A stretch of DNA of 64,000 bases from an uncultured bacterium (GCA_963834265.1 CAWIAU010000001.1:652346-716345); one strand, 5' to 3'. Shown: positions 4,156 through 64,000, numbered from the stretch's first letter. Notes: a model not told the origin generated them from the letters alone. Made by a program: numbers and translations.

Positions 4156-4171
4156 AAACCGGACAAAACAA

Positions 4172-4411: not shown

Positions 4412-4413
4412 AA

Positions 4414-5280: not shown

Positions 5281-5382
5281 AATAGGTTAGCTAGAATATA
5301 TGTATTTTAACATATTCCTAAAGTATATACAATTTTGGCGTACATCATTTAAATTGGTTTTGTGATTACTGAAAAGAATTAG

Positions 5383-6617: not shown

Positions 6618-6752
6618 ATGAACAACACGAGTAATCCGGTAGTCGAACCGGGCAAATTTACGGATGACAGCCTGTTGATTCCGACTGCTATCGGAATAGT
6701 TATTCTGTTCGTGGTATTAGTGGTTGTTATTTTGTACTCAAGACGCAGATAA
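6618..6752 (+). CDS. small single-pass membrane protein (44 aa)
   Basis: My translation: MNNTSNPVVEPGKFTDDSLLIPTAIGIVILFVVLVVVILYSRRR*. One clean TM helix followed by RRR. Below the track length cutoff. Confidence 0.35.
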   Translation: MNNTSNPVVEPGKFTDDSLLIPTAIGIVILFVVLVVVILYSRRR

Positions 6753-6904
6753 TATGCAAAAAATCATATAAAATGCGTCTGCAGGAGATGCAAACCGTCT
6801 GATTAATAACTTTTCATTATGGTAGAGCACTACTAATTAGTACTATCACTTTTCGTTAAATCCTATATAATGTAATGGCCTAATCAGACTGGAGGGCATA
6901 CAAG

Positions 6905-7762
6905 ATGGATGGTGACAATAGTGACCTTGATCAAATGGACTATCCAAAGTATGCTCCTCCGACGTCAACACCTACTACACCAGCCGTAAGACATAGAATA
7001 TTCGGCAGGACTACCACAGTTCTGGGATCAGTTGCGACCAGAACTTCGTTACGCATCAGGCAAATAGCGGCGTACGAAGTTAATATTCCTCAGCCCAGAG
7101 AAATTGTCGCCGGACTCAAACATATTATTCCCGGTACATCCCGTAACGAGAAGACTGACGCCGGTCATAATAATGACAATGAGAAAAAAGATAATAAAAA
7201 AGTTATATCAGATTCTGTTCCTCTTCAAACAATGAAAACAGGCGCTTATACCGATTCTGAAGATGAGCTTCGCAAAGGTAATAAATCTCAGCAGGATACC
7301 GGTTCTGAGCAAAAGCAACAGGATAAAATAACTACAGATGCGGAGCGTGACGATAAACTTAAAAAAATTCTGGCCGAATCCAATGAAGTACTGGCCAGTG
7401 CCAACACCGTATTTCCTTTTAGCCTGTTTCCTGACAGCGTGGTACTCGATCGCACCAAGGTTACCATTACACGTCGTAATTTTTTCTTCTCCAGCGAGGT
7501 TATGAGCATGCGTATCGACGATATCCTGAATGTTACAACAAGCGTAGGCCCTTTTCTCGGCTCTGTGACCCTGGCTGGTCGGGTTCTGAGTTCAGAAGAT
7601 CATTTTACTATAACGAACTTCTGGCGTAATGACGCGATCCATCTCAAGCACATTATACAAGGCTACATCATAGCCAGGCACAACAACATAGATTGTGAGC
7701 ATCTGGGCAAAGAAGAATTAATCGCTACTCTGACAAGACTAGGCCACGATACCGGTAATTAA
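6905..7762 (+). CDS. hypothetical protein with a C-terminal bacterial PH (bPH_2/DUF304)-like domain
   Basis: Disordered, charged N-terminal half. The C-terminal LFPDSVVLDRTKVTITRRNFFFSSEVMSMRIDDILNVTTSVGPFLGSVTL pattern resembles bPH_2 domains. Confidence 0.5.
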   Translation: MDGDNSDLDQMDYPKYAPPTSTPTTPAVRHRIFGRTTTVLGSVATRTSLRIRQIAAYEVNIPQPREIVAGLKHIIPGTSRNEKTDAGHNNDNEKKDNKKVISDSVPLQTMKTGAYTDSEDELRKGNKSQQDTGSEQKQQDKITTDAERDDKLKKILAESNEVLASANTVFPFSLFPDSVVLDRTKVTITRRNFFFSSEVMSMRIDDILNVTTSVGPFLGSVTLAGRVLSSEDHFTITNFWRNDAIHLKHIIQGYIIARHNNIDCEHLGKEELIATLTRLGHDTGN

Positions 7763-7799
7763 ATTTGTTTTAGAGATAAAATCCTCCGGCCCTAAACCG

Positions 7800-9437: not shown

Positions 9438-9561
9438 TTTATCCTTAAATTTTACTAATTTAGTAATAAAATCCAGTCATTTTGCTTGTAAAATGTCCAA
9501 ATTACTCAAAATTGTATAGATTACCGCTAGCAATGTCAACCCACTTTGCTATACTGGGATC

Positions 9562-10134
9562 ATGAAATATAAGGTTGGTGTTTTTGGATCCAGTGCCGGT
9601 GATATGAGTCTGGCTTTGCCCGGCGCCATTGAGTTAGGGCGTGTTTTCGGCGAATATGCCGATCATTTGATCATCATCACAGGTGGTTGCGCGGGTTTGC
9701 CCTATGAAGTTGCCAAAAAAGCCCACAGCTCCGATGTAGAAATCCGGGGATATTCAGCCGAAATAAATATGGATGAATTGCAAAAAAGTGCTCCTGATGA
9801 CGATCACTCGATTTATTCGGAACTCCGGTTTGTGCCAACTAACTTTCCATTAGCCCAAACTAGAAGCGCGCGAATGAAATATAGAAACGTTATCTCAACA
9901 GCTAATTGCGACGCCGGAATCATTATCTCCGGTCGCTGGGGCACTCTGAATGAGTTCACAAATCTAATTGACCAGCAAAAGATAGTTGGCGTACTGACAG
10001 ATACCGGTGGAATAGCTGATGAACTGCCAGAACTGACCCGCAAAATTTCCAAAGCAGGCCAGGGCAGAATTATCTTTGAAAGTGATCCGGGAAAGTTAGT
10101 CGGGAAAATACTTACGACTTTAAAGACTGCTTGA
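9562..10134 (+). CDS. LOG / TIGR00725-family Rossmann-fold protein
   Basis: VGVFGSS...TGGCAGLPYEVAKKA...SGRWGTLNEF follows the LOG-family GGxxG / PGGxGTxxE pattern. Confidence 0.6.
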   Translation: MKYKVGVFGSSAGDMSLALPGAIELGRVFGEYADHLIIITGGCAGLPYEVAKKAHSSDVEIRGYSAEINMDELQKSAPDDDHSIYSELRFVPTNFPLAQTRSARMKYRNVISTANCDAGIIISGRWGTLNEFTNLIDQQKIVGVLTDTGGIADELPELTRKISKAGQGRIIFESDPGKLVGKILTTLKTA

Positions 10135-11206
10135 TTTCTGCAGCAAGATTGGTGTTCCACATGGCGGCTGTGACGGATTGAACTAAATCTGCACCGGCAC
10201 TGCGGTAATCATGAAAATCATCCGGCGTCATAACACCACCTATGCCTATAATTTCATAATCGTAATTATATTTTTTGCGAATTTCGAACAGACGCCTGAC
10301 CATATCCACTCCGGCCCACTTAATGCCTGCTCCGCAAACACCACTACGAAGACGTCCCTTGCCCGGCAGCATCTGATTACCATATTTGTCTACTATTGCC
10401 GCAGGAATAGTATTTATTGCAGAATAGGCTCTCAAATACGGAGCGCTGTCCTTTATTATTTGCTCCAGCAAATCCTGTTGGACGGGGGCAAAATAGCCGA
10501 GCTTTCCGATCAGAGGTATATCGCCAACAGCTTCTTTAACTTTGCGTGCGATTGTTACCACTGAGTCATGGTTATAGCAAAGAACTCCTTCGCTGGCCAC
10601 ATTCGGGCATGAGAAGTTTACTTCTATCACTTTGACGCCAGTGCTCGCCGCCAGCTTCGCCGTATAAGCAAAATCATCGAAGTAATCCTGCTGACTAAAT
10701 CTTTCTTTGATAGTCCCTACAACACCCGCAATCAGAAGCTGTCCTTTGCCTTGCGCAGAAAAAGATTTTTTCATATCTTCAACCCAGAAATCCGGGCCAC
10801 GGGACGGATTCCCGAATGAATTAGTAATGGTAAGCTTTTCGAGCGATGTATCAGATGTCATACGCCCTATAAGCGGCTGTGCGGCTTTCTCCAATGTCAA
10901 ATCCCCATCCACCTCAACATATACGACATTAGGAAATTCATTCGCAGGGAATGACAAGCTGCGCTGCGTTTTATAGACATTTACATCAAAACCCCGCTCA
11001 AAAGCATGCCTGATGTGTTTACTCGTTGGCAATGATCCGGCGCCGATGCCAAACGGAGAATATATAGGAAAACCTAAGAAACTGTATGCAGGCTCTCCGG
11101 TATTTTTAAATGCTGCTGCTGTTAAATCTGCGGGAAAAGGACCATTATCAAAGTTATCGTCGAAAGTTTTAGCTGGATCTGAAAATACTGCTTTTCGATC
11201 GGGCAT
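10112..11206 (-). CDS. pyrD: dihydroorotate dehydrogenase family protein
   Basis: NFSCPNV active-site loop, GIGGV near the C-terminus, and location next to pyrF/pyrE. Confidence 0.7.
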   Translation of the reverse strand: MPDRKAVFSDPAKTFDDNFDNGPFPADLTAAAFKNTGEPAYSFLGFPIYSPFGIGAGSLPTSKHIRHAFERGFDVNVYKTQRSLSFPANEFPNVVYVEVDGDLTLEKAAQPLIGRMTSDTSLEKLTITNSFGNPSRGPDFWVEDMKKSFSAQGKGQLLIAGVVGTIKERFSQQDYFDDFAYTAKLAASTGVKVIEVNFSCPNVASEGVLCYNHDSVVTIARKVKEAVGDIPLIGKLGYFAPVQQDLLEQIIKDSAPYLRAYSAINTIPAAIVDKYGNQMLPGKGRLRSGVCGAGIKWAGVDMVRRLFEIRKKYNYDYEIIGIGGVMTPDDFHDYRSAGADLVQSVTAAMWNTNLAAEIKQSLKS

Positions 11207-11246
11207 TATTTGCTCCTCATGTTATTTAAGGATAACATGTAAGAAG

Positions 11247-12074
11247 ATGACTTTCATGGAGAAACTTGATACCTGCGTGTCAAAAAATGACTCCTTGCTG
11301 TGCGTGGGATTAGATCCCGATATCAGTAAATTACCAGAGGGCCATAATCAATACAGCTTTAATAAAGCTATTATCGATGCTACTCACGATTTGGTTTGCT
11401 CCTATAAGCCCAATCCTGCATTCTACGAAGCGCTTGGAGCTGAGGGTGTAGCCAATCTTGAAAAAACCTGCAACTATATTAAACAAAAATATCCGGGAAT
11501 TCCTATCATTCTTGATTGCAAAAGAGGTGATATCGGAAATACAAATGCGGCATACGCAGGTGCTGTTTTCGAATTCATGACAGCCGACGCAGCTACCGTT
11601 CATCCTTATTTTGGGAAAGAGTCATTAATCCCGTTTCTTGAGTATAAAGATAAAGGTATCATTGTCATGTGCAAGTCTTCTAACGCCGGCGGCGGCGAAT
11701 TCCAGGACTTGCAACTATCTGATATGAAGCTTTACGAATATATCGCGCATCAAGTAGTTACTGAGTGGAATATACATAATAATTGTATGCTTATGGTGGG
11801 AGCGACGTATCCGGCCGAATTAGCAACTGTCCGAAAAATTGCGGGACCCGATATGCAGATTCTGGTGCCGGGTATTGGAGTTCAGCAGGGGAATATTGAA
11901 GAAATGCTGAAAGCAGGTTTAAATAGCGAAGGTTTGGGCTTAATCATAAATTCTTCGCGTGAAATTATTTTTGCATCCGGAGGTACGGACTTTATTGTGG
12001 CCGCACGCGCAAAAGCTATTGAAGTCCGGAAAAGAATTAATCAGTACAGAAATACAGGAATGAGTACATCATGA
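11247..12074 (+). CDS. pyrF: orotidine 5'-phosphate decarboxylase
   Basis: LCVGLDPD and ILDCKRGDIGNT motifs. Start moved to ATG 11247 (MTFMEKLD...), because the track start 11013 would be antisense to pyrD. Confidence 0.85.
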   Translation: MTFMEKLDTCVSKNDSLLCVGLDPDISKLPEGHNQYSFNKAIIDATHDLVCSYKPNPAFYEALGAEGVANLEKTCNYIKQKYPGIPIILDCKRGDIGNTNAAYAGAVFEFMTADAATVHPYFGKESLIPFLEYKDKGIIVMCKSSNAGGGEFQDLQLSDMKLYEYIAHQVVTEWNIHNNCMLMVGATYPAELATVRKIAGPDMQILVPGIGVQQGNIEEMLKAGLNSEGLGLIINSSREIIFASGGTDFIVAARAKAIEVRKRINQYRNTGMSTS

Positions 12075-12679
12075 GCATTGAGGATCAAAAACGCATGCTT
12101 GCACTGGATTTATACGATATCGGAGCCTTGAAGTTCGGAGAATTTACATTCAAAAGCGGTATTGTCAGCCCGATGTATATAGATCTGCGTTTGTTTATCA
12201 GCTATCCAAAGGTGCTTAAAAAAGTAGTAAATATTTATGCGGGGTTGCTTAAAGACTTAACGTATGACCGTTTGGCAGGAGTCGCTTATGCTGCCTTACC
12301 GATAGCAGGTGCGGTAAGCCTGGAGATAGAACGTCCATGGGTTTTTTTACGCAAAGAAGGAATCAAAAAAGAATACGGTTTACAGAAAAGTTTAGAAGGA
12401 GAATACACTAAGGGCGAGACCGTCGTTATGATAGAAGATTTGGTTACACGCGCTACCTCGTTATTAGAAGTCATTCCCGTTATTGAAGAGCATGGATTGG
12501 TTGTCAAAGATGCTGTGGTACTCATTGATTATGGCAAAGGAGGTCCTCAGAATATGAAATCTAAAGGTTATGTCGTCCATGCCTTTATAACTACCGTGGA
12601 GTTAGTTACTATAATGCATTCAGAAAACAAAATTGATGATAATAAATATCAACAATGTTTAGAATTTCTCGCAAAATAG
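12071..12679 (+). CDS. pyrE: orotate phosphoribosyltransferase
   Basis: PRPP-binding loop VVMIEDLVTRATS; 4-nt overlap with pyrF. Confidence 0.85.
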   Translation: MSIEDQKRMLALDLYDIGALKFGEFTFKSGIVSPMYIDLRLFISYPKVLKKVVNIYAGLLKDLTYDRLAGVAYAALPIAGAVSLEIERPWVFLRKEGIKKEYGLQKSLEGEYTKGETVVMIEDLVTRATSLLEVIPVIEEHGLVVKDAVVLIDYGKGGPQNMKSKGYVVHAFITTVELVTIMHSENKIDDNKYQQCLEFLAK

Positions 12680-12785
12680 TTTTTTGATATTTTACTCTTT
12701 ATATTAATGTTCAAAACGGTTGTGCTTGATCTCTGGAATACGTATAATTCTAAGGAAGAGAAACAACTAAATAAAAGTGAGTGCG

Positions 12786-13994
12786 ATGAGAATATTGATG
12801 CTTGGGTGGGAATTACCGCCCAATAACAGTGGTGGGCTAGGTGTGGCATGCCTTGCTCTCTGCAAAACTCTCTCGCAAAAAGGTGTGTCAATCCAGTTTG
12901 TCCTTCCCTACAAGGCTGATCACGGAATTGATTTTATGGATGTAATCGCGAGCAGCAATAACCTGCCCTCCCGGATATTTGGTGCTTATGACAGCTCACA
13001 ATTTCTTCCCGGTTTGTCAGCCGAAGACCTAAGTTCCGCAAGTGATATTTTCGCAATTGAATCACAATACCAGAATAAAGTTAGAAAAATCGTCAAGGAA
13101 CGTACATTTGATCTTATACATGCACATGACTGGCTTACATTCCGGGCAGGGCTCAGGGCACGCGAACTATCCGGAAAACCCCTGATCCTGCATGTACACT
13201 CCGTGGAGTCAGATCGTGCCGGGTCTAAACAAGGTAACCCGTTAGTGCATGAGATAGAAGAGTTGGGACTGACTCTGGCAGATCATATTGTAGCCGTCAG
13301 CGAACTTACCAAACAGAAGATTGTGCATAACTACCATATTCCTGCCGATAAGATTACTGTGGCTCATAATAGTATCGATAGAGAGCATATTGCGCCCCTT
13401 GATCCTATCAACACCTATCATTATCTTAGCAACCTCAAGAGTCAGGGTTATAAGGTTGTCGTCAGTATTGGCCGTCTGACTATCCAGAAAGGGCTGTATA
13501 ATTTCCTGGGAGCTGCAGCCAGAGTAGTATCGCACCAGCCCAAAACCATTTTTCTGATTGTTGGCTCTGGTGAGCTTGAACATGAACTGATCAGTCGTTC
13601 AGCAGAGCTTGGTATCGGACGGAATGTACTGTTTATAGGATTCCAGCGTGGTAAGCAGTGGCGGGATGCATTTGCAATTGCAGATTTGTTTGTTATGCCC
13701 TCAGTATCTGAGCCTTTCGGATTGACTCCACTTGAAGCAATCGGGTATGGTACGCCGGTGTTGATAAGTAAACAGTCCGGCGTCTCAGAAGTGCTGATGA
13801 ATTGTCTCAAAACAGATTACTGGGATACAGACAAAATGGCGAATGATATAACTGCAGTACTTCGTTATCACACTTTGCAGCAAACTCTGGCTGCCAATGC
13901 TGTTCAGGAGCTGGCATCTCTTAGTTGGCACAATACAGCCGATAAACTGATGAATATATATAGAACCCATATTCCAGCTGGAGCTGCGGTATGA
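12786..13994 (+). CDS. GT4/GT5-type glycosyltransferase, glycogen-synthase-like
   Basis: MRILMLGWELPPNNSGGLGVAC N-terminus and the EPFGLTPLEA motif. Operon with GH57 and GH15 genes. The start may instead be GTG 12777. Confidence 0.8.
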   Translation: MRILMLGWELPPNNSGGLGVACLALCKTLSQKGVSIQFVLPYKADHGIDFMDVIASSNNLPSRIFGAYDSSQFLPGLSAEDLSSASDIFAIESQYQNKVRKIVKERTFDLIHAHDWLTFRAGLRARELSGKPLILHVHSVESDRAGSKQGNPLVHEIEELGLTLADHIVAVSELTKQKIVHNYHIPADKITVAHNSIDREHIAPLDPINTYHYLSNLKSQGYKVVVSIGRLTIQKGLYNFLGAAARVVSHQPKTIFLIVGSGELEHELISRSAELGIGRNVLFIGFQRGKQWRDAFAIADLFVMPSVSEPFGLTPLEAIGYGTPVLISKQSGVSEVLMNCLKTDYWDTDKMANDITAVLRYHTLQQTLAANAVQELASLSWHNTADKLMNIYRTHIPAGAAV

Positions 13995-31389: not shown

Positions 31390-33177
31390 CTATTCTTTAT
31401 CAGCACCTATGTAACCGCCGCTTTGATGGGCCCACAGATCTGCGTATATTCCGGATTCTTTAAGCAATTCGTCGTGAGAACCTGTCTGCACAATACGGCC
31501 CTTGTCCATAACTATAATTTTATCCATGCGCTGTACCGTACTCAAACGATGAGCAATTACCAGCGCGGTACGGCCTTTCATCAGCTTCCACAGAGCCGTT
31601 TGAATATATTTCTCGCTGCGACTATCAAGCGCGCTTGTAGCTTCGTCAAGCACCAGAATCGGTGCATCTTTCAGAATCGCACGAGCTATTGCTACCCGTT
31701 GTCGCTGGCCTCCTGACAGTTTTACTCCCCTTTCACCAACCAATGTTTCATAGCCGTTCGGTAATTCAGCAACAAATTCATCAACGTAGGCCAGTTTTGC
31801 GGCCTGAATTATCTCCTTGTCCGAAGCTTCAGGACGACCATAAGCAATGTTTTCTTTTATACTACGATGAAATAAAAGTGGTTCCTGCGGAACATAGGCT
31901 ATCCTTCGGCGAAGCTCATACTGGCTGGTCTCACGGACATCGATATCTTCAATTTTTATTGAGCCGGAACTCACATCCATAAATCTCAATATCAGTTTAG
32001 TAAGTGTGGTTTTGCCAGCTCCCGAAAAGCCCACCAGGCCAATCCGCTGGCCTTTCTTAATCATTAAATTGAACATGTCTATCGCGTGTTTTGATTTATT
32101 GCCGTTATAGCCAAAACTGACATTGTCAAAATGGATCTGTTTCGGATGATCACGAAAATTTTTGGGGTGAACAGGGTCAACAACCGACGGCTGAATTTGC
32201 ATAGTTAAAGCGGGTTTATAGGCCATGCCCATAATCTGCTCGTATTGTTTTATCAGATCCGCAAGTTCAAGGGTTACAAATAGTAGTCGTAACATGTAAA
32301 GCTGAACCAATACCACAACGGCGAGTGTAATAACATTGTTCTGATAAAGTGCCGCGGTCGACAGTAACAACACGCAAATTATACCGTAACTTAATATCAG
32401 ACGAATGGTATTGGACGGATCAAGACTATACCATGCTTTGAGCTGAGCTTTACGCCATTTTTGAGCCGCCGGCTTAATATATTCAAGTTCGTAATTACCG
32501 GAGGCGAAGGCTTTGACGGCAGCTCCGTGACTTAGCGCATCGGCTTCAACGCCAGACAGATCGCTGCTCGCTTCACTGCTGGCTCTTCGATATTTGGAGC
32601 GTGACTGACTGGAAGCAATGGTATAGCCTAAAATCATAGCCATACAAACCAGTGATATCAAAAACAACTGCCAGGAAAAATAAGCTAAGACGGTTAGAAG
32701 TGATAATACACTTATAGCATCTTTCTGAAATACAAATTTAAATTCATGCGCATATACTGTGAAAGCCTGGCGTAGCTGTGACACCTGATTACCGATTGAT
32801 CCTACGAACTGACTTGAGTAAAAATCGTAATCTTTGTTTAAGAAATTTGAAAATGCTGCACGCTGGACGTACAAGGCCCCGTTAACACCCATGCGGCAAT
32901 CAGCCCGGTTGGCATAATAACTTAGTATAATAGTGATGAGCATCGCAGCTATAATGTGCCATATATATGTGCTGATTTCAGTAAATTTCCTCTCAAAGAT
33001 TGCCTGAACAATATAAGCCACTTGCAAAGGTACGTAAGCATGAGTAAAGAAAAAGCCCGGTATATTAAGCAGCGATAAAGCGAGGTTTTTTTTATCGCTA
33101 AGCATAGCACGCCAGAAAAGAGCATGGATAAACCGCGTGGTTTTTTTGTCCCGCGCTAAGTCATCGGTAGCGCTCAT
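31390..33177 (-). CDS. ABC exporter, fused permease/ATPase (MsbA/multidrug-type half transporter)
   Basis: Six-TM N-terminal domain, Walker A GFSGAGKTT, signature LSGGQRQR, Walker B ILVLDEATSALD, H-loop AHRL. Starts 3 nt after the rplO stop. Confidence 0.9.
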   Translation of the reverse strand: MSATDDLARDKKTTRFIHALFWRAMLSDKKNLALSLLNIPGFFFTHAYVPLQVAYIVQAIFERKFTEISTYIWHIIAAMLITIILSYYANRADCRMGVNGALYVQRAAFSNFLNKDYDFYSSQFVGSIGNQVSQLRQAFTVYAHEFKFVFQKDAISVLSLLTVLAYFSWQLFLISLVCMAMILGYTIASSQSRSKYRRASSEASSDLSGVEADALSHGAAVKAFASGNYELEYIKPAAQKWRKAQLKAWYSLDPSNTIRLILSYGIICVLLLSTAALYQNNVITLAVVVLVQLYMLRLLFVTLELADLIKQYEQIMGMAYKPALTMQIQPSVVDPVHPKNFRDHPKQIHFDNVSFGYNGNKSKHAIDMFNLMIKKGQRIGLVGFSGAGKTTLTKLILRFMDVSSGSIKIEDIDVRETSQYELRRRIAYVPQEPLLFHRSIKENIAYGRPEASDKEIIQAAKLAYVDEFVAELPNGYETLVGERGVKLSGGQRQRVAIARAILKDAPILVLDEATSALDSRSEKYIQTALWKLMKGRTALVIAHRLSTVQRMDKIIVMDKGRIVQTGSHDELLKESGIYADLWAHQSGGYIGADKE

Positions 33178-45622: not shown

Positions 45623-47717
45623 CTATTTGGCGTTTTTGGCCACGATAGCTTCGGTGACGTGTGATGGAACGTCTGCGTAGTGGTCAAGTTCCATGCTGGA
45701 ACTGGCGCGACCCTGGGACATACTGCGCAGATTAGTCGTGTAACCGAACATTTCGCCAAGCGGAACAAATGCTGTAATTTCTTTGATACCCTGAGAAAGA
45801 TCTTCCATGGTTTCTATACGGCCTCGTTTGGAGTTAAGATCACCGATGACATCACCCATAAATTCTTCCGGTGTGACAGCAACCACTTTCATGACCGGTT
45901 CAAGTAACACCGGGCCGGCTTTTTTGACACCTTCCTGCAGTGCCATCGAGCCGGCAATCTTGAAGGCCATTTCCGATGAAGTCAACATCATGGTAGCTGC
46001 CGTCATAGAGCTCGGCTTTGACATCAACCACAGGATAGCCGGCAATCACACCATTGTTCATAGCTTCTATAATGCCTTGTTGAACAGGCTTGATGTACTC
46101 GCTCGGAACAGTTCCGCCCTTGATCGAGTTGATAAATTCGAAGCCTTTGCCCTGTTCATTCTGGCTCAATCGCAACCAGACGTCGCCATACTGACCACGA
46201 CCACCGGACTGTCGTATGAATTTACCTTGTACTTCCACGCCATCTTTACGGATCGTTTCGCGGTAAGCTACCTGCGGCTGGCCGATATTGGCTTCGACAG
46301 AGAATTCGCGTTTCATGCGGTCAACAATGATTTCCAGATGTAGCTCACCCATGCCACTGATGATTGTCTGGCCTGTTTCTTCGTCTACTTTGATACGGAA
46401 CGTCGGATCTTCCTCTGCTAGGCGCTGCAAAGCGATAGCTCATTTTTTCCTGGTCGGCTTTGGTCTTAGGTTCGATGGCAATACGATAACCGGTGGCTCC
46501 GGGAACGTAATGCTCTCAAGTACGATAGGGTTATTGGGATCGCGTAAGCGTATGGCCTGTTGTTGTTGCCTTGAGGCCTACAATCGCTGCAATATCGCCG
46601 GCGACGATTTCGTTGACATCTTCGCGCTTGTCTGCCTGCATACGAACGATGCGGCCAATACGTTCTTTTTCGCCGTTGGAACTATTGAGGATATAACTGC
46701 CTGCTGTCAGTTTGCCTGAGTAAACCCGGACAATAGCTAGCTTGCCGACGAACGGGTCGGTGGCAATTTTAAAGGCCAGTCCGGCGAATGGCTCAGCTTC
46801 CGACGGTTTGCGCTCTATTTCGTCGCCGGTTTTTGGATGTGTACCCCAGGTAGAGCCTCGTTCAATCGGGCTTGGCAGCAGATCAACAACAGCATCCAGT
46901 ACTTTTTCGACTATTACACCCCGGCCATCGCCGCCGGTTACTACAAAGAATTTGCCGGTCAGGATAGCATGCACGAATAGCTTGTTTGATTTCGTCTTCG
47001 CTAAGACCTTCTTCGCCGACTTCAAAATACTTTTCCATGATCTGCTCGTCTTCTGCGACTGCATTTTCTATCAGCAGTGAACGGTATTTTTTGGCTTTGT
47101 CCAGCATATCTGCCGGCATTTCACCTTCTACCAGTTCTTTATCGGTGAAATCTTTGTAGGTATACGATTTCATACTGATCAGATCTACGATACCGTTAAT
47201 GCTCTGCTCAAAGCCAATTGGCAGATGGATCGGGAAAGCATGCTTGTTCAAACGGGCATGTATAGAATCAAGTGATTTATAGAAGTCGCCACCGGTCTGG
47301 TTGATCTTATTGATAAAGCAGATACGCGGTACCTTGTATTTGTCGGCCTGGCGCCAGACTGTTTCGGATTGGCTCTCAACGCCCATTTTGCCGTCAAAGA
47401 CAGTCACAGCCCCGTCCAGAACACGTAAGGAGCGTTCGACTTCAACCGTAAAGTCAATGTGGCCAGGAGTATCAATAATGTTGATCTGATGGTCTTTCCA
47501 GTAACAGGTCACCGCGGCAGAAGTAATAGTTATACCCCGCTCGCGCTCCTGCTCCATCCAGTCAGTAGTCGTCTCGCCCTCATGGACAGCACCAATCTTG
47601 TGCTTGAGCCCCGTTCGGATACAGAATACCCTCAGTCGTAGTAGTCTTACCGGCATCAATATGAGCAATAATCCCAATATTCCGTAATTTGTCTAAAGTG
47701 TATTTCTTCGCCGCCAT
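45623..47717 (-). pseudogene. fusA: elongation factor G, reading frame broken by at least six single-nucleotide indels (pseudogene or assembly errors)
   Basis: The four track ORFs plus my own frames tile a complete EF-G: [29 protein letters not shown] / RTGLKHKIG...DTPGHIDF...IKQAIRA / AILTGKFF...GLKATTTGHTL / PNNPIVLESITFPEP / IAIEPKTKADQEKM / [16 protein letters not shown]...YDGSYHDVD / [10 protein letters not shown]...AKNAK*. Approximate shift sites: 47609-47624, 46960-46975, 46533-46545, 46478-46497, 46432-46446, 45971-45986. Confidence 0.9.
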
Positions 47718-47744: not shown

Positions 47745-48029
47745 CTACTGATTGATATGGCCAAATACAGCTTGGCCATTACATGCTTGAAATCTACCCA
47801 TTATTCCACCAGAAGGACCTCCATCACACGTCTCTGGAACTACGTTTACAATAGTGGTCAAGATTCCTGCAGGTGCCAAACCGTGTTTATCTAAAGCTGT
47901 GTAAAAACTAGTCATTCCTCTAATAATTAACGAATCTGTTGTGTTACGACGTGATTCAATATTTTGTTTTAATGGGCAAACTTTCTCAGGGTCAAAATCA
48001 CAGGCGATTTCTTTCATGATTTCAGTCAT
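47745..48029 (-). CDS. hypothetical 94-aa Cys-containing protein inserted between rpsG and fusA
   Basis: MTEIMKEIACDFDPEKVCPLKQ...PETCDGGPSGGIMGRFQACNGQ, preceded by a strong AGGAGG 6 nt upstream. The longer track ORF (start 48158) is less likely. Confidence 0.5.
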   Translation of the reverse strand: MTEIMKEIACDFDPEKVCPLKQNIESRRNTTDSLIIRGMTSFYTALDKHGLAPAGILTTIVNVVPETCDGGPSGGIMGRFQACNGQAVFGHINQ

Positions 48030-49080: not shown

Positions 49081-52000
49081 TTAGACATCCAGATCAACTC
49101 TTTCGCTGTCCGGCAAATCATCGAAATCACCATCCGGACGGTAGCCGGTACCTACAGGAATACGCCGACCCAGAATCACGTTTTCTTTGAGTCCGAACAG
49201 ATGGTCGACTTTGCCACTGGTAGCAGCTGCAATCAGTACGCGGGTCGTATCTTGGAAAGATGCAGCAGACAGGAATGAGTCAGTACTGAGGGAAGCTTTG
49301 GTAATTCCCAGAAGTAACTGGGTTACAATAGCCGGTTCTTTGCCTTCGTTTGCTAATTGTTCGTTGGCATTTACAACTGTCAGTTTGCTCACTACGTCGC
49401 CTGTAACGAATTCGCTGTCTCCGGAATCTTCGATCTGAACCCTCGAGAACAACTGGCGTACGATGATTTCGAGGTGCTTGTCGGCAATATTCTGACCCTG
49501 GCTGGCAAAAATACGAAGAATTTCGTTCATAATGTAACGCTGGGTAGATTCTACACCTTGTAAGCGCATAAGATCATGAAGATTTATCGAACCATTGGTC
49601 AGACGCTGGCCGGCTACGACGGTATCACCGTCTTTGACCAGTATCTGCTTATAGCCGGGAATGTCGTATTTGACAACACTTTGTCCCGCAGGAGTAATGG
49701 TGATGACTTTTTTGTTCATCGATATTTTGCCGGCCACCGGAGCGATCAAGGGACTTTCACCGCCTTCGGCAGCAGCAATGACATCACCGACTGCAACTTC
49801 GGACCCGACTGCAACATGTACTGTGCGCTCTCCGATAGTAAGCTCGCTTGTCTTAGCCTGATCATCAGTAACCTGAACGGCATAATGCTCGCCCTCCTCC
49901 CAAACACTGACCATACCAGGAATATCTGACAGGAAAGCTTTACCCTTAGGTACCCGAACTTCAAACAGCTCTTCAACACGAGGCAAACCCTGAGTAATGT
50001 CATCGGCTACCGCAGCACCACCACTATGGAAGGTTCGCAGAGTCAACTGAGTACCAGGTTCGCCGATACTTTGAGCAGCAATGACACCTACGGGACTATG
50101 ATCAGCAACGAGCTGGCCTGTTGCCGGATCAAGTCCGTAGCTTTTACGGTTGATACCACGAACGGTGCTACAACTTAGAACACTCATTATCCGAACGCCG
50201 TCCAGACTGGTATCGGCTTCGATAGCTGTGGCTGCTTCGCCCGATATGAGTTCACCTTTTTTGACATATTTTGCAATGTTCTCAGCTGCAAATCGCCCTG
50301 CGAGACGCGAGGTGTAGGTAACACCGATCTCAGCCGCATCAGAACGGAACATAGCGAATCCGGGATCTACAGCACCTTCTTCAATCGTAAAGACGTCCTG
50401 AGCGACATCGACCAGACGACGGGTCAGATAACCGGAGTCGGCAGTCTTCAGAGCAGTATCGATCAGGCCTTTGCGCTGACCACGGGTAGAAATGAAGTAT
50501 TCCAGCGGGTTCAGGCCGTCCCTGTAGTTGTTCCTGATAGGTAGCTCCATAGCACGTCCGGAGGCATCTGAGAGGATACCGACAGAACCTATAACCTGCT
50601 TGACCTGCACGATTGAACCACGGGCACCAGACGTGACTGCCAGCGACATTGCGTTATCTTCGTTTGCAAACTGCTCGGTCAGAGCCTTCTGCACCTTGCT
50701 ATCTGCTTCGGTCCAGGTTTCAATAGTCAGTCGATAGCGTTCGTCTTCGGTAATGAAGCCCTGATCGTACTGTTCGCTGACAGCAGTTGCCCGCTTCTCG
50801 CCGGCATCTAATATGACATCCAGCTTCCTGACATCTACAAAGTCACTCATACCCATAGATAATCCGGACTTTGTGGCAAAGGTGAACCCAAGGGTCTTCA
50901 GTTCGTCAGCAATTTCGGCGCTGGCTTCCTGTCCATAACGCTGATAGACTTTGGCCATAATCTGAGCCAGCTTCTTTTTAGTTGTCGGCTCATCCTGGAA
51001 CTCGAAGTCCTGCGGAAAAATTTCGTTGAACAGGAAGCGACCCAGAGTACTTTCCCGTTTACTGCCGCGGTAGTTTATGGATATGCGATCCTGCAAAGCT
51101 AATCCGCCGCCATCAAAAGCCATCAAAGCTTCTGCCAAAGCCGAATACGGTTTCGCTACCTGACTTGCGCCGGGGCGCTCATAGGTAAGATAGTAACAAC
51201 CGAGCACAATATCCTGTTCGATGTGAAGAATGGGTGTACCATCTGCAGGCTTAAGTAGGTTCTTGTTGGCAGCCATAATATCGCGGGCTTCAGCCTGAGC
51301 ACGGTCTGACAGAGGCAGATGGACAGCCATCTGGTCACCGTCAAAGTCGGCATTGAAACCTTTACAAACCAGTGGGTGCAACTGGATAGCTTTCCCCTCA
51401 ATCAATACGGGCTGGAAAGCCTGAATACTAAGACGGTGCAAAGAAGGCGCGCGGTTCAGAAGAACGTACTTACCTTTGATTACTTCATCCAGAGCATCCC
51501 AGACGGCTACTTCCCCAGCTTCAATCATACGGGTAGCGCTACGAATATTATGAGCGAGTTCCTGCTGGATCAGCTGACCAATTACGAAGGGCTTGAAGAG
51601 CTCGAGTGCCATCATTTTTGGCAAACCGCACTGAAACATTTTAAGCTCAGGTCCGGACACGATAACAGAACGGCCGGAATAATCCACCCGCTTCCCGAGA
51701 AGGTTCTGACGGAAGCGGCCTTGTTTGCCCTTGAGCATATCACTGAGAGATTTAAGGCGTCGTCGTCTGACCGGTGGCTGCAACTGCACGACCGCTGCGA
51801 GCCGAACTGTTGTCGATCAATGCATCCACAGCTTCCTGTAACATACGCTGCTCATTACGTCGAATGACTTCGGGAGCATTCAGGTCGATCAGCTTCTTTA
51901 AGCCGTTATTTCGATTGATAACTCGTCGGTAGAGGTCATTCAGATCAGATGTAGCGAATCGTCCACCTGTCAGCTGAACCATCGGACGAAGATCCGGAGG

Positions 52001-52903
52001 AATTACCGGCAGAACTGACACACACATGCTTGTCGGCTTGATCCCGGCACGTTCCATGCTCTCGAGCAATCGCAGACGCTTCATGATTTTCTTTTTGCGC
52101 TGACCTTTTGCTTCTTCAGCTTCTGTGCTGAGGCTTGCGATAAGCGCAGACAGGTTGATTTCAAACAAAAGATCTTTCAGTGCCGCACCACCCATACCCA
52201 CGGTTACCAGATTTTGTAACTCTGACGGCATTGACCTGTAGTCATTCTCGCTTATGAGATGAAGCTTTACGAGGCCTGTCAGTTGTTCTTTCAGCGTATC
52301 GAATTCTTCCTGCACTTCTTCCAGCTCTTTAGTCTGCATCTCAGCCAGGGCTTTAACATTCGCATCTTCTTTGGCTGCATCGGCTTCGTAACGGGCTTTG
52401 ATTGCCTGCTGAGCAGCGGCAAATTCGGCTTCTTTATCAGTTAGCATAGTGTCGCGTTTTGCGGCATCGACAGACTTAATGATATAACTCGCAAAGTAAG
52501 CCACACGTTCGAGACTCTTTACAGTCAGGCCCAGCAACAGTCCCACTGCACTTGGTGTGCCCCGGAGGAACCATATGTGAGCAACCGGCGAAGCCAAAGT
52601 AATGTGGCCCATTCGTTCACGGCGGACAATCGAGCGCGTTACTAGTTCGCCATTTTTATCAACAGCAGCTTCGCGTGACCGAACCCCCTTGTATTTTGCG
52701 TCATGGGGATTTATGTCTTTGACGGGACCAAATATCCGTTCGCAGAACAATCCGTCACGCTCCGGCTTCTGCGTTCTGTAGTTAATAGTTTCGGGCTTGG
52801 TAACTTCGCCGTAACTCCATTCCAGAATATCGTCAGGACTGGCAACAGCCAGACGCACCGCATCAAAATCGGCAATATTTGTACCAGTCATATATCGGCG
52901 CAT
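49081..52903 (-). CDS. rpoC: DNA-directed RNA polymerase beta-prime subunit, interrupted by one frameshift near 51752-51775
   Basis: The upstream ORF ends ...[23 protein letters not shown]. The +1 frame continues [37 protein letters not shown] and contains [12 protein letters not shown]. Start chosen at MRRYMTGT (52903), 1 nt after the rpoB stop. Confidence 0.93.
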
Positions 52904-57976: not shown

Positions 57977-58105
57977 TTATTCTTTCCTCTTATGTCTACT
58001 CAGTATATCAAGCTCTAAGAAATGCTGGCAAGCGATTCTGTTTCGGTTGCTTTTGTTCAGGCTTAGCCGCTGTTGTTGCAAATACTCTTCAAGTGATTGA
58101 ATCAC
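57977..58105 (-). pseudogene. degenerate third immunity-like start (42-aa ORF, GTG start)
   Basis: My translation: VIQSLEEYLQQQRLSL...*. The first ~30 nt resemble the [11 protein letters not shown] start of the two paralogues. It is preceded by the toxin-tail remnant SSKAAGCR*. Confidence 0.3.
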
Positions 58106-58111
58106 CTACAA

Positions 58112-58191
58112 CCTGCCGCCTTACTACTTTAGGATAAAACTTAGCCATAATTAATACTCTGGGATATTTTTTGGTATTGGTTTGTCATTTA
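58112..58191 (-). repeat. junction repeat copy A (3' end of the 59673..60068-type gene + spacer + toxin-tail remnant)
   Basis: 58128-58191 is identical by eye (64/64) to 59650-59713, and 58112-58123 (cctgccgcctta) is identical to 59634-59645 and 60367-60378. Confidence 0.85.
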
Positions 58192-58280
58192 TAACGACAT
58201 AGCCCCCTCTTTTATCATTTGATACTACAAATATTCATGATTGATATTATGTCATTTTGCTTAGTTGTAAATTTTATTCA

Positions 58281-58562
58281 CTATTTATTACCTTTACTCA
58301 GATGTTCAGTAAATTCTTGTTTCCAATTCTTAAAGTCAACAACTCCATAAATCAACGTGCCTTTTTCGTCAATTGCTCCGGCAAGACTAAGTGTATCAAT
58401 AAACTCTCTTAAAACTGGATACTTTGCCTGGATTTCTTCAGATAGTTTTTCATTCTCTGGATGATCAAATTTTTCTGCCCACAGTGCAACTTCAATGGGA
58501 TTTTTTGTGCCCGATATTAATTCATCTACAAGTTTGAGCGCTTTCTTGGTCAATTTTTCCAT
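58281..58562 (-). CDS. hypothetical 93-aa protein in the immunity array
   Basis: ORF with helical composition; assigned from context only. Confidence 0.5.
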   Translation of the reverse strand: MEKLTKKALKLVDELISGTKNPIEVALWAEKFDHPENEKLSEEIQAKYPVLREFIDTLSLAGAIDEKGTLIYGVVDFKNWKQEFTEHLSKGNK

Positions 58563-58589
58563 TTTATTTTGAAGAACCCTCGTTAGAAT

Positions 58590-59321
58590 TTACGTATTCA
58601 CGAGGTGTTTAATGGTTTTATTAGCCTCACGAACATATAAATCATCACTACTTATAGATATTAACCTTTCGAGTTGGGGTATCAACTCCACTATTTTCAG
58701 CTTATCTACAGGGTTAAGAGCTGCCAGTTTAACTGACTCGTCGTTGATGAGCTCCTTAATTACTTGTTTTGTTTCCGGTACAAATTTTTTAAATTGCGCA
58801 AGACCCCACACTAACGATACTCGCGCATACGACAAGTTCTTATCCTCACAAAGCTTTGTGTACGCTTGATACGATTCACGATCCTGTAAAGGCACAAGTT
58901 TTACTAGAGTGCCCGCAACAGCCGTTTGGCTATTAATTATGTAGTCCGGCCATTTGCTATCGTATCCCATCAAGCTAAATTTTTGTGCTAAAAGCATGAA
59001 AAGATTTTTATCTCTCTTATGACTATCTAAAATCATTGAGAAAAGAGACCTGACCTGTAGATATTTATCATCATTTATGCTTGCTACAGCAGGTGCAATA
59101 AGTTGTCTGCTGAATTCTTGTTCGCTTCTTATTTTTTTACCAAAATCTGGGAGTGAAAGAATATCGGCCACAATCTTTTTTTCAACATTATTCTTAATCA
59201 GAAAACTCTTAAGAAGCGCTAGTCTTTCGTCGTTAGAAAACGGCTGGCCCCATTTTATATGAGCTTTCTGATTTCTTTCATCAGAAGCATTAATTCTGGT
59301 TAGAAGTTTATCATTTTTCAT
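58590..59321 (-). CDS. hypothetical 243-aa helical-repeat protein in the immunity array
   Basis: ORF; all-alpha repeat-like composition; assigned from context only. Confidence 0.5.
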   Translation of the reverse strand: MKNDKLLTRINASDERNQKAHIKWGQPFSNDERLALLKSFLIKNNVEKKIVADILSLPDFGKKIRSEQEFSRQLIAPAVASINDDKYLQVRSLFSMILDSHKRDKNLFMLLAQKFSLMGYDSKWPDYIINSQTAVAGTLVKLVPLQDRESYQAYTKLCEDKNLSYARVSLVWGLAQFKKFVPETKQVIKELINDESVKLAALNPVDKLKIVELIPQLERLISISSDDLYVREANKTIKHLVNT

Positions 59322-59345
59322 AGCTAGTACGGTTCGTATTATCTT

Positions 59346-59627
59346 TTAATCAAAAGAGTTTTTATTTTGTATGATCTTTTTCAATATTCTTTTAATCTCC
59401 GAGGTTCGCTCAAAACACTGTTCCCTAAAGCCTGGGAAGTCGTGTCCCATCAGCTCAGTGAATTTCTGATACACTAATGCACCTACTTCTGCCTCAGACA
59501 TATGTGGTTCAAAAGCCGACTGGATTGTGGATGCCTCTAAACTATACTCATCTGAAGGGGCTCCAAGTTCCTGGATAAATCCCATGGGATCCCAAGACGC
59601 AAAATATTCTTCTAATACTTTACTCAT
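59346..59627 (-). CDS. immunity-like protein, paralogue 2 (DUF1871-like pattern)
   Basis: [18 protein letters not shown]... The first 18 aa are identical to 60103..60360 and the rest is roughly 40-50 percent identical. WDPxG...AP.DEY resembles DUF1871. Confidence 0.65.
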   Translation of the reverse strand: MSKVLEEYFASWDPMGFIQELGAPSDEYSLEASTIQSAFEPHMSEAEVGALVYQKFTELMGHDFPGFREQCFERTSEIKRILKKIIQNKNSFD

Positions 59628-59713
59628 CTAAACCCTGCCGCCTTAATGCTTTAGGATAAAACTTAGCCATAATTAATACTCTGGGATATTTTTTGGTATT
59701 GGTTTGTCATTTA
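59570..59713 (-). repeat. junction repeat copy B
   Basis: 59570-59645 matches 60303-60378 (immunity 5' end plus toxin tail, about 92 percent by eye). 59650-59713 matches 58128-58191. Confidence 0.85.
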
Positions 59714-60068
59714 TTATGACTTCAATTTTCTCAGGCTGTATCGAGGCAAGCAAATCAGTCCCGTCCACTTTTATGATCTCCAGTTCATGTAAAAAACCAT
59801 TAATTACATGGAGAAGTATGTCGACAACTACTCCATCTGTATCATGCGTAGTACCTTCAACTGGTAAATTATTAAGGGTAACGGCTCTATTAGAACCCTC
59901 TGCTTTAAAGTATATACTTCCGTAGTTATCGTCATCTGCAGCAGAAATAACCGTCGGGGATTTTGTCTGCTGTTTAATTTCTTCACTCCCAGGAAAAGGA
60001 TGCTCCAGAAGCTTACTTATAATCACGTACTCTAGTTCTGTTAATGGACGCTCGGGTATTTCTTTCAT
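59673..60068 (-). CDS. second immunity-like protein (131 aa)
   Basis: Pattern ...DDDNYGSIYF......DTDGVVVDILLHVINGFLHELEIIKVDG resembles a family I recall next to polymorphic toxins (DUF6984-like). That recollection is not verified. Confidence 0.55.
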   Translation of the reverse strand: MKEIPERPLTELEYVIISKLLEHPFPGSEEIKQQTKSPTVISAADDDNYGSIYFKAEGSNRAVTLNNLPVEGTTHDTDGVVVDILLHVINGFLHELEIIKVDGTDLLASIQPEKIEVIINDKPIPKNIPEY

Positions 60069-60102: not shown

Positions 60103-60360
60103 TTATCTTTTGCTCAAAAGAGTTCTCATTTCATGAGATCTATCTAAACATTCTTTTTCAAAACCTACTGGATCAATCCCCATAAAGTCGGTAAATATGG
60201 AATGTACTAACTCTGCCAGCTCCTTATTATCCATGTTAGGCTTAAATTTCCGTGCTATTTCAGCCGCTTCTAAACTATATTCATCTATAGGAGCGCCATC
60301 TTTTTTAATAAATCCCATTGGATCCCACGATGCAAAATATTCTTCTAATACTTTACTCAT
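60103..60360 (-). CDS. immunity-like protein, paralogue 1; start overlaps the toxin stop (ATGA)
   Basis: [31 protein letters not shown]...; ATG at 60360 overlaps the TGA at 60357-60359. Confidence 0.7.
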
Positions 60361-61082
60361 CTAAATCCTGCCGCCTTACTGGATTTAGCAATTACCGTCA
60401 CTACTTCACCTTTTGTATTTAATACTACTTTTCCAAGAGCATTTTCATAATTATAGGTATTGCGTCCTGCATCAAATGTTTGTTTACCGTTTTTTACAAT
60501 GTGCTGTATGGCCTGAGGGCTAATCTGCGGACCACCTCTTGTACCAATACTCCTGCCTAGAGCATGTATTCTATAGCCCTGAATTACTCTATCCTTACCA
60601 TAATTTCTTACAACTTGTGGTGCGGCTTTCTTTGCGGCTTGCTTAGCCCCCTGTTTTCCAGCTTGTTTGGCCACGCCTACGCCTGCTGCTCTTAAGGCTG
60701 CCGCACCAATCTGCCAGCATACAGCAACAAATATGCCACAAGTACCGTTTAAATCTCTGTCATTCACCGGATCAGCTGGATACACATAGTTGTTTGGTGT
60801 GCCGCCTTCTACGGGGTCAACTGTCGTGAATCTGCCGAGGGTCTGGATGTATACTCTAGCACCCATCTCCATGGTGGTATTGGTGATCTTGGGTTCGGCC
60901 AGCTTCTGGTGTTGGCCGAGCCAAGCGAAGCTGTCATTGCCGGTTATGTTGGCGGGGGCGGGAGTGGCGGTTTGCTTGCCGAAGGGATCGTAAGTGAATG
61001 TGCCGGTTTGGGTGCCTCCTGCGTCGGTGGTAGCGAAGACGTCACCGTGGACGCTAGTGAGGGGAGAAGGTTTTTTGGGCAT
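60357..61082 (-). CDS. Rhs C-terminal core end plus 129-aa toxin tip (downstream frame of the frameshifted Rhs gene)
   Basis: FTYDPFGK...[39 protein letters not shown] is the Rhs core terminus. The tip (60360..60746) has a hydrophobic/Lys-Ala linker, then [31 protein letters not shown]...[16 protein letters not shown]. Confidence 0.85.
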
Positions 61083-64000
61083 TCGTAGGCGTAGCGTTCG
61101 GGCGAATTGTCAGCAGCACGCCGCCAGGCAGGCTCAGATACTTTTCGATGACGTTGGTGCTGCTATTCAAAAGAAAGTCTGGACTGTCACTGGAGCTGGT
61201 GTAACCTAGGTAGGTGTCGGTATAAGGTATACTGCTGCCACTGGCTCCCCGGTAGTAAATGCGGTCGGCCACGTCACGGTAGTACTGGATGTTAGCATCC
61301 GATCCGAAGTATTCGCGCACCAGTGAGGTCCGGTCGGAAGCGTCGTAGGCGAACTGCAAGCCGTCCAAGTGGTAGGTCGTACCAAAGCTGGTGGTATTGC
61401 CGTGGGCATCATAGCCAGGCGTAGTCAAAGATTGATCCGAACTGGATACAAGCCGGTCGGCATTGTCGTAGCAATATGTGGTCGTTGCCCCGTTGACGGT
61501 TTGGCTAGTACGGTTGGCATTTTTACCGGAATTTATATTGTAAGTACCCGTGCAAGCTGTGGGAGCGACAAAGTTGTAGGCGTAGGTATTTGTTCCGAAA
61601 GTTGCTGCCGTTAAGCGCCTGGCTTTGTCGTATGTGTACGTTTTGGATTGACTAAGCTCTGTGCCGGAAACCACTTGGCCGGACTGGGAACGCGTTACCG
61701 TGTCGCTTGGGCCAGCGCCGCCACTCCCTAGTGTATACGTCATCGCATTGGTGCGACCAAGCGTATCACGTCCTATGACAAGCTTTTGTTGGCCAGCCGT
61801 TGGATACGTTACTTGCTGCAACCGACTAAAAGCGTCGTAAGCGGTCGTGGCATAAACCGTGCCGTCAAGCTTATGACTAACCAGGCGATTGAAGTTATCA
61901 TAGGTGAATTCTTCGAGTCCCAGTTTGGGCGAAGAACGACTAACCAGGCGGCCGATGGTATCGTAACTGGTTACGGTTTGCCCTGTGACAAATGTATAGC
62001 TCATAGAATCTCTATATCCAACCACCCGGCCGAGTAGGTCAACGGTTGTTTCGACGTTAGTAGGGTCACTTGAGCTTGTAATTAACGGATTGCCATTAAC
62101 TGCCCAGTTATTGTTAATAGTACGTCCTGCCGCACCGACTGAATTTGGCGGAATAACCGTTTGAGTTACACGTCCTCGCGCATCGTGGGTAGTGCAAGTC
62201 CAGGAATCGGCATTGAGCCGATTGGCTACGACCCGTCCGGCATCATCGTAAACACTTTCGCTGACGCGGCCTGTCTGCGGTCCTCCGGCGTCGGGATCAG
62301 CCTCAGTCTTGAGTTTCATCATACCGGCTTGTTTGTACGTCTTGGTCGTGTCGCAGGGGTTTTGACGTGTTTCAGTGCCATTATAGTAGGTATAGTTTGT
62401 GGTCCCGCCGCCCGGCAGTGTTTTGGACGTTTGGCGCAAGTAGCTGCCCGATGCGCCTTGAGTTTCGTAAGTACTGCCTGTGGTTAGTCCAAGACCGGAC
62501 GGATCAAGCGTCGTAGATTGGACTAAGCTAAGTTCCGGATTAGCTCCATAGTTGCTGGTCGTAATGCTATCGCCGACACTGGTGCTGGAGTCAAAGGTTT
62601 TCTGAGTGGTAGCAAGTACGTAGTTTGGCTTGAGCAAGCTGCCCAGAGCGCTGGTTTCTGTGCCCCCCGGAGGCGTCATGTACAGTTCCAGCCGGGCGTC
62701 AGTATCTAGGACGCTGCCGACGGACTTGTTGTAGTAATCTACCCGGAGACGGTGCCAGCTATCGGCAGGATTGCTGGTATTATTGAACACCCCGTTGGCT
62801 GAAGTATTAGCCGGATGCGGACGCTGGGCACCGTCTACCCAGTCATTGATGAGCAAATTGTCGTCTATCCAGACCCGCACCCCGTCATCGGAAAAGGCTC
62901 GGAAGGTATGGTTGCCCCCAGCCGTCAAGTGAATCCAGCCGGTCAAGCTAGTCCCCCAGCCGTTGTTAGCCGCGGGTGTAATGGGCGGACTGCCGCCCCA
63001 TGTCTTGAGTATGTCGCCGCTGGCTGGGCCAACGCCAGTCGTATGGCTCTTGGGGTTGCCGAACAACACCTTAGTGTTAACTCCCGTGCCATTGCTAGCA
63101 GTTGTAACGTCGTAGTAAGCCGCGGCTAAGCCGTTGATTCCCTCTTCAAAAGTAGTCTGGGTGCGCGGTATCTGCGAAGTGTAATCCGTCGGGGCAGTCA
63201 GCGGCTTGTTATCCGTACCAAACCAGGCGGACGGGGCCGGACCGTAGTCATCGGTCTCACGATCGGCATAGTCATAGAGCGAGGTTGATTTAAGCCCGGC
63301 GGGATCGGTTATGGACTTCACCAGGTCTTTGACAGGATCCCACACAGTTGTAACGCTCAGGTTGGCAATGTCGGTATCAGTCAGCGTACGGTAAGTACCG
63401 TCATAGGTTACTTTACGGCTGAAACCATTCGGTTCAGTAGCGTTCGTAACATGCATCTGCGATGTATTGCCTGGTAAGTATTTGTAGGTGTGAGCCAAAC
63501 GAGTAGCACCGGCAGTAGCGGCCGGCAAGGTGACGCTCGCAGCGCGTCCGAGGCCATCATAGGCAACGCTAGTTAGCTCCGTCCCGTCTTGCGTACGTAC
63601 CCCAGCCGCTATGGCATCATTAGCCAGGCTGCCGCGTACCTGTGACAATAAGCCGGATTGATACGCATAGTCGGTAAACTCATTGCCCGGCATGGTTATA
63701 CGGGCAAGACGAGGCACGCTGTTCGCATCATTGACATAGAAAATACCGGTAGTCCTACTGTCCGAGCTGGTCGCACCGCAAATCATGCTCGTCGCACTGG
63801 CCGCAAGAAAGCCGGACGGGGCGGCGGGACAGGCCGAATCGCCGCCGTAGAGCACTTTGAGCCAACGACTAGAATCTACGCCGTCAGTGATCTGCGTAAT
63901 ACGAGCCGCCGAGCCGCTTGAGCTTCCATAAGTATATTTTAGGGCTGCCGGATTGCGGTCGTCAGCCGGACGGGTAACCGACTTAATCGTCCCGTCGCTA
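61054..64000 (-). CDS. Rhs/YD-repeat protein body with embedded PA14-like domain; N-terminus beyond the window
   Basis: YD repeats: [47 protein letters not shown]. My translation shows the frame stays open from 63856 to 64000 (..[27 protein letters not shown]..). PA14-like segment at 62665..63138. Confidence 0.9.

Follow-up and report, generated by a model that had tools for sequence, protein, structure and literature searches.

Is the broken reading frame of EF-G in this Saccharibacteria (Saccharimonadales) genome a property of the organism or of its assembly? The gene concerned, fusA, lies on the minus strand of the 64,000-nt stretch of DNA that we analysed (hereafter the window), between rpsG, which is followed by a small open reading frame (ORF), and tuf. 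As deposited, it cannot be read in one uninterrupted frame: its coding sequence is divided into seven in-frame stretches distributed over all three frames. A preliminary description of the locus had recognized that six frame changes are needed and had offered, unranked, three explanations: a locally error-rich assembly or strain mixture, a very recent inactivation for which another copy elsewhere compensates, or something more exotic. The analyses presented below indicate that the most mundane of these explanations is right and that it can be made specific. The extra bases are almost certainly an artefact of some kind rather than a biological feature of the genome.

We aligned fusA with a frameshift-aware protein-to-DNA method, using as reference the EF-G of the closest intact orthologue, locus L001 on a 370-kb JGI contig (93% amino acid identity). 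L001 has the same gene order, rpsL–rpsG–fusA–tuf, including a small and poorly conserved ORF between rpsG and fusA. The alignment called for exactly six frame changes and contained no in-frame stop, and every change fell within 3 nt of the place where it had first been noticed (Table 1). Five are +1 insertions, as originally described. The sixth had been read as a 1-nt deletion near 46487, but it proved to be two extra nucleotides, GTT-A-TCG-T-ATT, because the gene is 2095 nt long compared with 2088 nt in its orthologues, an excess of 7 nt, and because none of the 120 homologues departs from V409, S410 and I411, so that an additional residue cannot fit. The surrounding motif, PPVSIAIEP, is similarly invariant in all 120. 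All fusA events are therefore insertions: five add 1 nt and one adds 2 nt. Their clustering, which the preliminary description had singled out as requiring an explanation, is real and far beyond chance, with six of the eight frameshift sites in the window falling within 3.3% of its length (P = 3e-8).

Table 1. Coordinates of the interrupted genes and of the individual extra bases, numbered from the first nucleotide of the window.
Feature	Position	Strand	Remark
fusA, frame as it stands	45623–47717	minus	Readable through only with 7 bases deleted
fusA site 1, TAT+C, Tyr33	47618 (placement ambiguous within 47616–47620)	minus	TAC also Tyr
fusA site 2, GCA+T, Ala249	46969	minus	GCT also Ala
fusA site 3, ACG+C, Thr391	46542	minus	ACC also Thr
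fusA site 4a, GTT+A, Val409	46487	minus	GTA also Val
fusA site 4b, TCG+T, Ser410	46483	minus	TCT also Ser; codon adjacent to 4a
fusA site 5, AGC+T, Ser425	46437	minus	AGT is the sole synonymous alternative
fusA site 6, GAC+T, Asp577	45980	minus	GAT is the sole synonymous alternative
rpoC	49105–52903	minus	One extra base divides it into two ORFs
rpoC site, extra A after CAG, Gln379	51766	minus	CAA is the sole synonymous alternative; context CAG-A-CGA CGA CGC
RHS toxin gene, probable +1 frameshift in TCC CCT CAC TAG	61057–61064	minus	ORFs 61054–63855 (933 aa) and 60357–61082 (241 aa)

We applied the same alignment procedure to a further 17 genes of the rpoB–rpoC–rpsL–rpsG–fusA–tuf–S10 block. The neighbours of fusA had been described as intact, which holds for rpoB, rpsL, rpsG and tuf, none of which required a frame change; nor did 12 ribosomal-protein genes of the S10 and spc operons. 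The description did not mention rpoC, however, and this gene carries one extra base of its own. Outside the block, every tested gene with a Pfam domain aligned to its model over the full or almost the full length and gave no hint of truncation; among these genes were argininosuccinate synthase, GH57, aldehyde dehydrogenase, def, an RluD-like protein, S9, L13, L17, RpoA, S4, S11, S13, SecY, an ABC transporter, L15 and S5. A further break probably affects an RHS toxin gene composed of a PA14 domain and RHS repeats (60357–63855, minus strand). Here, the end of a 933-aa ORF is overlapped in another frame by a 241-aa ORF, which makes a +1 shift in the overlap likely. The shorter ORF contains a complete RHS-associated core domain (TIGR03696), which we take to mark the C-terminal end of the repeat region in RHS architecture, and the two ORFs are probably one gene broken by the shift. 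This shift may be read either as C added after CCT, in the manner of the doublets described below, or as an error in a run of C.

Several other features of the window were recorded in the course of this survey. The stretch adjoining the RHS toxin gene (58000–60000) has a low GC content (36.8%, compared with about 45% for the window) and contains short ORFs with no Pfam match except DUF6984; it may be an immunity or orphan-toxin cassette region. In the spc operon, rplO and secY are separated by an inserted gene for a 595-aa ABC transporter (31390–33177, minus strand) whose membrane and ATPase domains are fused, and the related contig L085 has the same arrangement. The small ORF that fills the rpsG–fusA spacer encodes about 94 aa (47745–48026, minus strand) and has counterparts of 95 aa in L001 and 118 aa in L002 at the same position, which are only 24–27% identical. 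Searches of Pfam and NCBIfam returned no match for it, and it may be either a real, fast-evolving gene or a spurious ORF.

Removal of the 7 nt yields an EF-G of 695 aa, the same length as nearly all of its 120 closest homologues, whose named members all belong to Saccharimonadales or Patescibacteria. The repaired protein is 93% identical to P0001 and P0002 and has a five-domain architecture, with GTP_EFTU, D2, EFG_III, EFG_IV and EFG_C present in all top matches. We used the 120 closest homologues to define 360 invariant columns and 495 columns conserved at ≥95%. The repaired EF-G matched every invariant column and deviated at a single one of the 495, and this lone deviation, M227, is also found in three homologues. 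In simulations of random substitution, at least eight unconstrained changes left more than one such deviation with >95% probability. The initial impression that the EF-G segments are free of accumulated substitutions and in-frame stops is therefore confirmed, as is the view that fusA is not an old pseudogene, since the repaired protein bears no substitution load. Two residues, M200 (I or V in others) and I328 (Y or F in others), occur in none of the 120 homologues. More speculatively, M200 (ATG) could be a chimeric codon assembled from an ATN (Ile) and a GTG (Val) allele, as would fit a mixed consensus.

The G4 motif of the protein (residues 136–139, at about 47301–47312, minus strand) reads N-K-I-N rather than the canonical N-K-x-D. 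NKIN is shared by the EF-G of the window, by each of its 120 closest homologues and by Saccharibacteria species that are more distant (NKIN loci: L003–L008, L013, L016–L021, L024 and L035). NK[MLI]D is found in the EF-G of other Patescibacteria and other phyla, and the EF-Tu of the window keeps NKMD. As a lineage-wide feature, NKIN cannot be put down to assembly error and may merit separate study; in engineered GTPases, a D-to-N change at this G4 residue reportedly switches specificity from GTP to XTP.

The extra bases also have a property in common. When placed where the protein stays consistent with its homologues, all eight (seven in fusA and one in rpoC) are insertions located directly after the third position of a codon, and all eight are synonymous with the third base that precedes them, such that swapping the two leaves the amino acid unchanged. 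The two-fold codons TAT, AGC, GAC and CAG each have just one synonymous alternative, and it is this base that was added; the +2 event in fusA consists of two such doublets in adjacent codons. We scored as a doublet any adjacent pair of different bases of which either can be deleted, restoring the frame and yielding one and the same acceptable peptide. When single bases were inserted at random into the repaired gene, this test was passed in 47–51% of cases. Relative to this null, 8 out of 8 corresponds to P ~0.003–0.004, which is modest for the window taken alone and comes from a post hoc test. The most likely and, in our view, natural reading of the sequence is that each doublet represents the two alleles of one silent SNP written in tandem. 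Each of the four doublets at four-fold sites involves a transversion, an uncommon finding between close strains; a more distant population fits better. No description of such a signature, in which both alleles of a synonymous SNP stand in tandem, was found in the papers on assembly errors that were consulted.

The longest homopolymer run within 6 nt of any fusA or rpoC site is 3. We also considered a common sequence motif. Each of the six fusA frameshift sites (45974–47620) has the trinucleotide ATC no more than 6 nt away, five times as YATCS, with P = 0.003 as the best of nine window/k-mer settings and before correction for those nine. Because the insertions stand at no fixed offset from ATC, and because ATC is absent at the rpoC site, it was rejected as a common site motif, and its proximity to the fusA sites is probably due to chance.

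The same pattern occurs in other assemblies. A search with an EF-G fragment as query returned many short EF-G pieces on long contigs, three of which were examined. L083 (ENA ERZ25039521 contig_51174, a 546-kb contig affected at 4344–12851) and L084 (ENA ERZ25039458 contig_32966, affected at 1–5265) derive from different Saccharibacteria species, with 77% nucleotide identity in fusA and 67% in ribosomal-protein genes. L083 requires 21 frame changes in rpoC, 11 in fusA, 6 in tuf and 1 in rpsJ, and none in rpoB upstream or in the S10/spc genes downstream, bar a few calls at divergent C termini. L084 requires 1 in rpsL, 3 in rpsG, 11 in fusA, 1 in tuf and 1 in rpsJ; its downstream genes need no change, and the contig breaks off within rpoC, beside the error-rich block. 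Since 6–21 breaks in each of rpoC, fusA and tuf are incompatible with a living cell, the pattern in these two contigs must be an artefact. Among their testable +1 events, 27 of 30 are synonymous doublets (null 0.51–0.54, P = 2.7e-5). Most of the 1-nt deletions, judged by eye, look like codons that have lost their third base, losses that fit the dropping of both alleles, the mirror image of the keeping of both. The third contig, L087 (ENA ERZ25039474), belongs to the same ERZ series and also has a broken fusA. L083 and L084 share frameshift positions at aa 96 and 686, and we considered whether conserved 'hot' positions exist; the two contigs come from different species and the sites in the window lie elsewhere, and none was established.

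The names of these three contigs follow a 'contig_N' pattern, which we take to be a style associated with long-read assemblers such as Flye. The source of the window is a single contig of 720,390 bp that is held in NCBI and ENA, the same source pair as for L083, L084 and L087, and we infer a long-read origin for it as well. The fragment search returned many further EF-G pieces of <280 aa on long contigs of up to 1.4 Mb, suggesting that error islands may be widespread in such assemblies.

By contrast with these contigs, 23 Saccharibacteria/Patescibacteria species representatives contained no fusA frameshift, except for one C-terminal alignment artefact in L024, and all 120 closest homologous proteins are full-length. 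The comparison with the closest relatives that the preliminary description had called for thus shows their fusA genes to be intact. Many of the 23 control contigs have names that we take to be in the SPAdes or MEGAHIT style. The EF-G fragment query found no protein above 89% identity in the collection, which therefore holds no same-species copy. An exact DNA pattern across fusA site 4 with a flexible gap returned nothing from JGI metagenomes. Exact protein look-ups for a near-identical strain gave no record for tuf or rpsG; the exact rpsL protein was found on a 2-kb Logan contig and on a contig of 0.2–1 Mb. L085 and L086, relatives from a 90% RplB cluster, were rejected as comparators because they have 73–80% DNA identity and end before fusA. 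A literature search that combined Saccharibacteria, fusA and frameshift found no paper.

The explanation that we favour, with a probability of roughly 0.8, is that the extra bases are consensus errors from mixed haplotypes that arose by a doublet mechanism specifically. The reads in the fusA stretch would come from two related haplotypes, contributed either by a co-occurring Saccharibacteria strain or species or by two fusA alleles within one population, and these haplotypes would differ mainly at silent third-codon positions. At some of the positions where one haplotype has X and the other Y, the alignment would render the difference as an insertion plus a deletion (X- against -Y), and a consensus that keeps both columns would read XY where each real molecule has one base, thereby shifting the frame by +1. 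A consensus step in which indels are cheaper than mismatches, as in long-read error models, would be expected to write either XY (+1) or nothing (-1); we infer that a polishing step of this kind was involved. Foreign reads would align only to the genes that are most conserved at the DNA level, such as fusA and rpoC, and not to their flanks, which could account for the concentration of errors in fusA together with the one in rpoC. A consensus in which both alleles are kept or both are dropped would affect synonymous positions only, alter no amino acid, be limited to conserved genes and leave the flanks clean.

What was observed agrees with a mixture on two counts: the indels stand at synonymous sites and the added base is what the other allele would have, both in the window and in the great majority of the testable +1 events of L083 and L084, and the pattern recurs in the conserved blocks of L083, L084 and L087 and is absent from the 23 species representatives. 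Of the explanations raised at the outset, it is thus the error-rich assembly or strain mixture that the synonymous third-position doublets support. Conservation alone, however, fails to explain why only fusA is so affected: relative to the available relatives, tuf and rpsL/rpsG have a DNA conservation equal to or greater than that of fusA, yet they are clean in the window, and the mixture model has to assume either one specific co-occurring relative or a pair of alleles confined to fusA. The clean tuf, rpsL and rpsG genes, the transversions at four-fold sites and the ATC near the fusA sites are left unexplained by the mixture model, and none of them points to biology.

A generic local sequencing or assembly error that involves no strain mixture is an unlikely alternative. 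Such an error might reflect low coverage, an uncorrected long-read patch or an island skipped by short-read polishing, the last because short reads map ambiguously in conserved genes. The density of the errors (~1 per 230–270 nt in the affected 1.64 kb), which resembles that in L083 and L084, and their confinement to a short interval are compatible with this account, as are the end of L084 next to its own error-rich block and the possible C-run error in the RHS gene, which would fit a long-read platform. Random read errors, however, would not generate synonymous third-position doublets in eight of eight cases. Typical Nanopore, 454 or Ion Torrent errors would be expected in homopolymers, unlike the sites here, none of which lies in a run longer than 3, and uncorrected patches of raw reads would have brought substitutions, none of which was seen.

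We consider it very improbable that fusA is a genuine and very recent pseudogene in a cell whose translation is sustained by another EF-G gene at a different place in the genome. The frameshifts are, after all, present in the deposited sequence, and gene loss is frequent in Patescibacteria, which live as episymbionts and have reduced genomes. A search for a second fusA covered the 64-kb window of the 720-kb contig and found none there, a scope that leaves some room for this explanation. Against it, the 7–8 indels are accompanied by at most ~7 possible unconstrained substitutions, a balance contrary to that produced by neutral decay in bacteria. Bacterial substitutions normally outnumber indels roughly 10–20 to 1, and bacterial mutation is usually deletion-biased, whereas all of the events here are insertions and all are synonymous third-position doublets. 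In addition, rpoC, a single-copy essential gene, has the same type of lesion, and fusA is intact in the 23 related species and in every one of the 120 closest database proteins. As judged from the sequence of the repaired EF-G and its conservation, ordinary pseudogene decay is ruled out, and recent inactivation backed by a second copy is disfavoured.

It is more improbable still that the insertions are real and are corrected by multi-site +1 ribosomal frameshifting, transcriptional slippage or RNA editing. The perfect conservation of the correct-frame segments is the sole point in favour of this idea and is equally predicted by an artefact. None of the marks of programmed +1 frameshifting was found, whether a P-site codon that re-pairs in +1 (TAT>ATC, GCA>CAT, ACG>CGC, GTT>TTA, TCG>CGT, AGC>GCT, GAC>ACT and CAG>AGA all fail to do so), a stop or rare codon in the A site (no shift site has a stop, and the first 0-frame stop is at least 3 codons off or absent within 15 codons) or a site conserved in any relative (the 120 homologues are full-length and the 23 loci lack frameshifts). 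Moreover, site 4 would require two shifts in adjacent codons. Rescue by transcriptional slippage would involve a long homopolymer tract, and with no homopolymer longer than 3 slippage has no substrate. Nothing supports the option of 'something more exotic' either, given that the sites have no slippery codons, stops or homopolymers, and we regard as scarcely credible a scenario in which all eight extra bases are real, fusA and rpoC are expressed through a new multi-site correction (+1 shifts at non-slippery sites or removal of bases from the mRNA), and the placement of the bases after third codon positions would have a mechanistic reason.

These findings bear on how such genomes are used. The fusA and rpoC genes of the window genome should not be annotated as pseudogenes, and no inference should be drawn from their 'loss'. 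More generally, rpoC, fusA and tuf are markers for phylogenomics and completeness scoring, and long contiguous MAGs can hide error islands in these universal marker genes while the rest of the contig looks clean. The doublet signature offers a read-free diagnostic, in that a frameshift that disappears, with an identical protein result, whichever of two neighbouring, non-identical bases is deleted is likely to be a merged SNP. This diagnostic, which also supplies a rule for repair, was significant in three independent contigs here and needs validation on data with reads.

Several known systems produce disruptions similar to that of the locus. Classical pseudogene decay likewise leaves an interrupted frame in a reduced genome. 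The disrupted frame is, however, the only feature of neutral decay that was found in fusA, which shows no excess of amino acid changes, no replacements at conserved positions, no in-frame stops and no deletions, and in which the events are confined to synonymous positions rather than being indels of both signs irrespective of codon position. Programmed +1 frameshifting of the prfB type and slippage rescue in endosymbionts are known recoding systems in which a +1 frame change is likewise needed for the full protein. Unlike these, the sites in the window number eight rather than one, are not conserved in relatives and have no slippery or re-pairing codon, no stop or hungry codon and no poly(A/T) tract. 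Homopolymer indels in Nanopore R9/R10 data similarly produce frameshifted and truncated MAG genes, which are fixed by read-level polishing (Sereika et al. 2022, PMC9262707); in the window, by contrast, 0 of 8 sites lie in a homopolymer longer than 3, and the inserted base differs from its neighbour. Serious polishing errors of metaFlye under strain heterogeneity have also been reported (myloasm preprint, PMC12424758). In our case, the signature of two synonymous SNP alleles in tandem is confined to rpoC–fusA–tuf, the block of greatest conservation, and the assembler or platform behind the window may differ. As with the metaFlye errors, however, these would be indel-type consensus errors that arise where the reads of closely related genomes pile together and that truncate genes in otherwise good MAGs, here in contigs with names of the Flye-associated 'contig_N' style.
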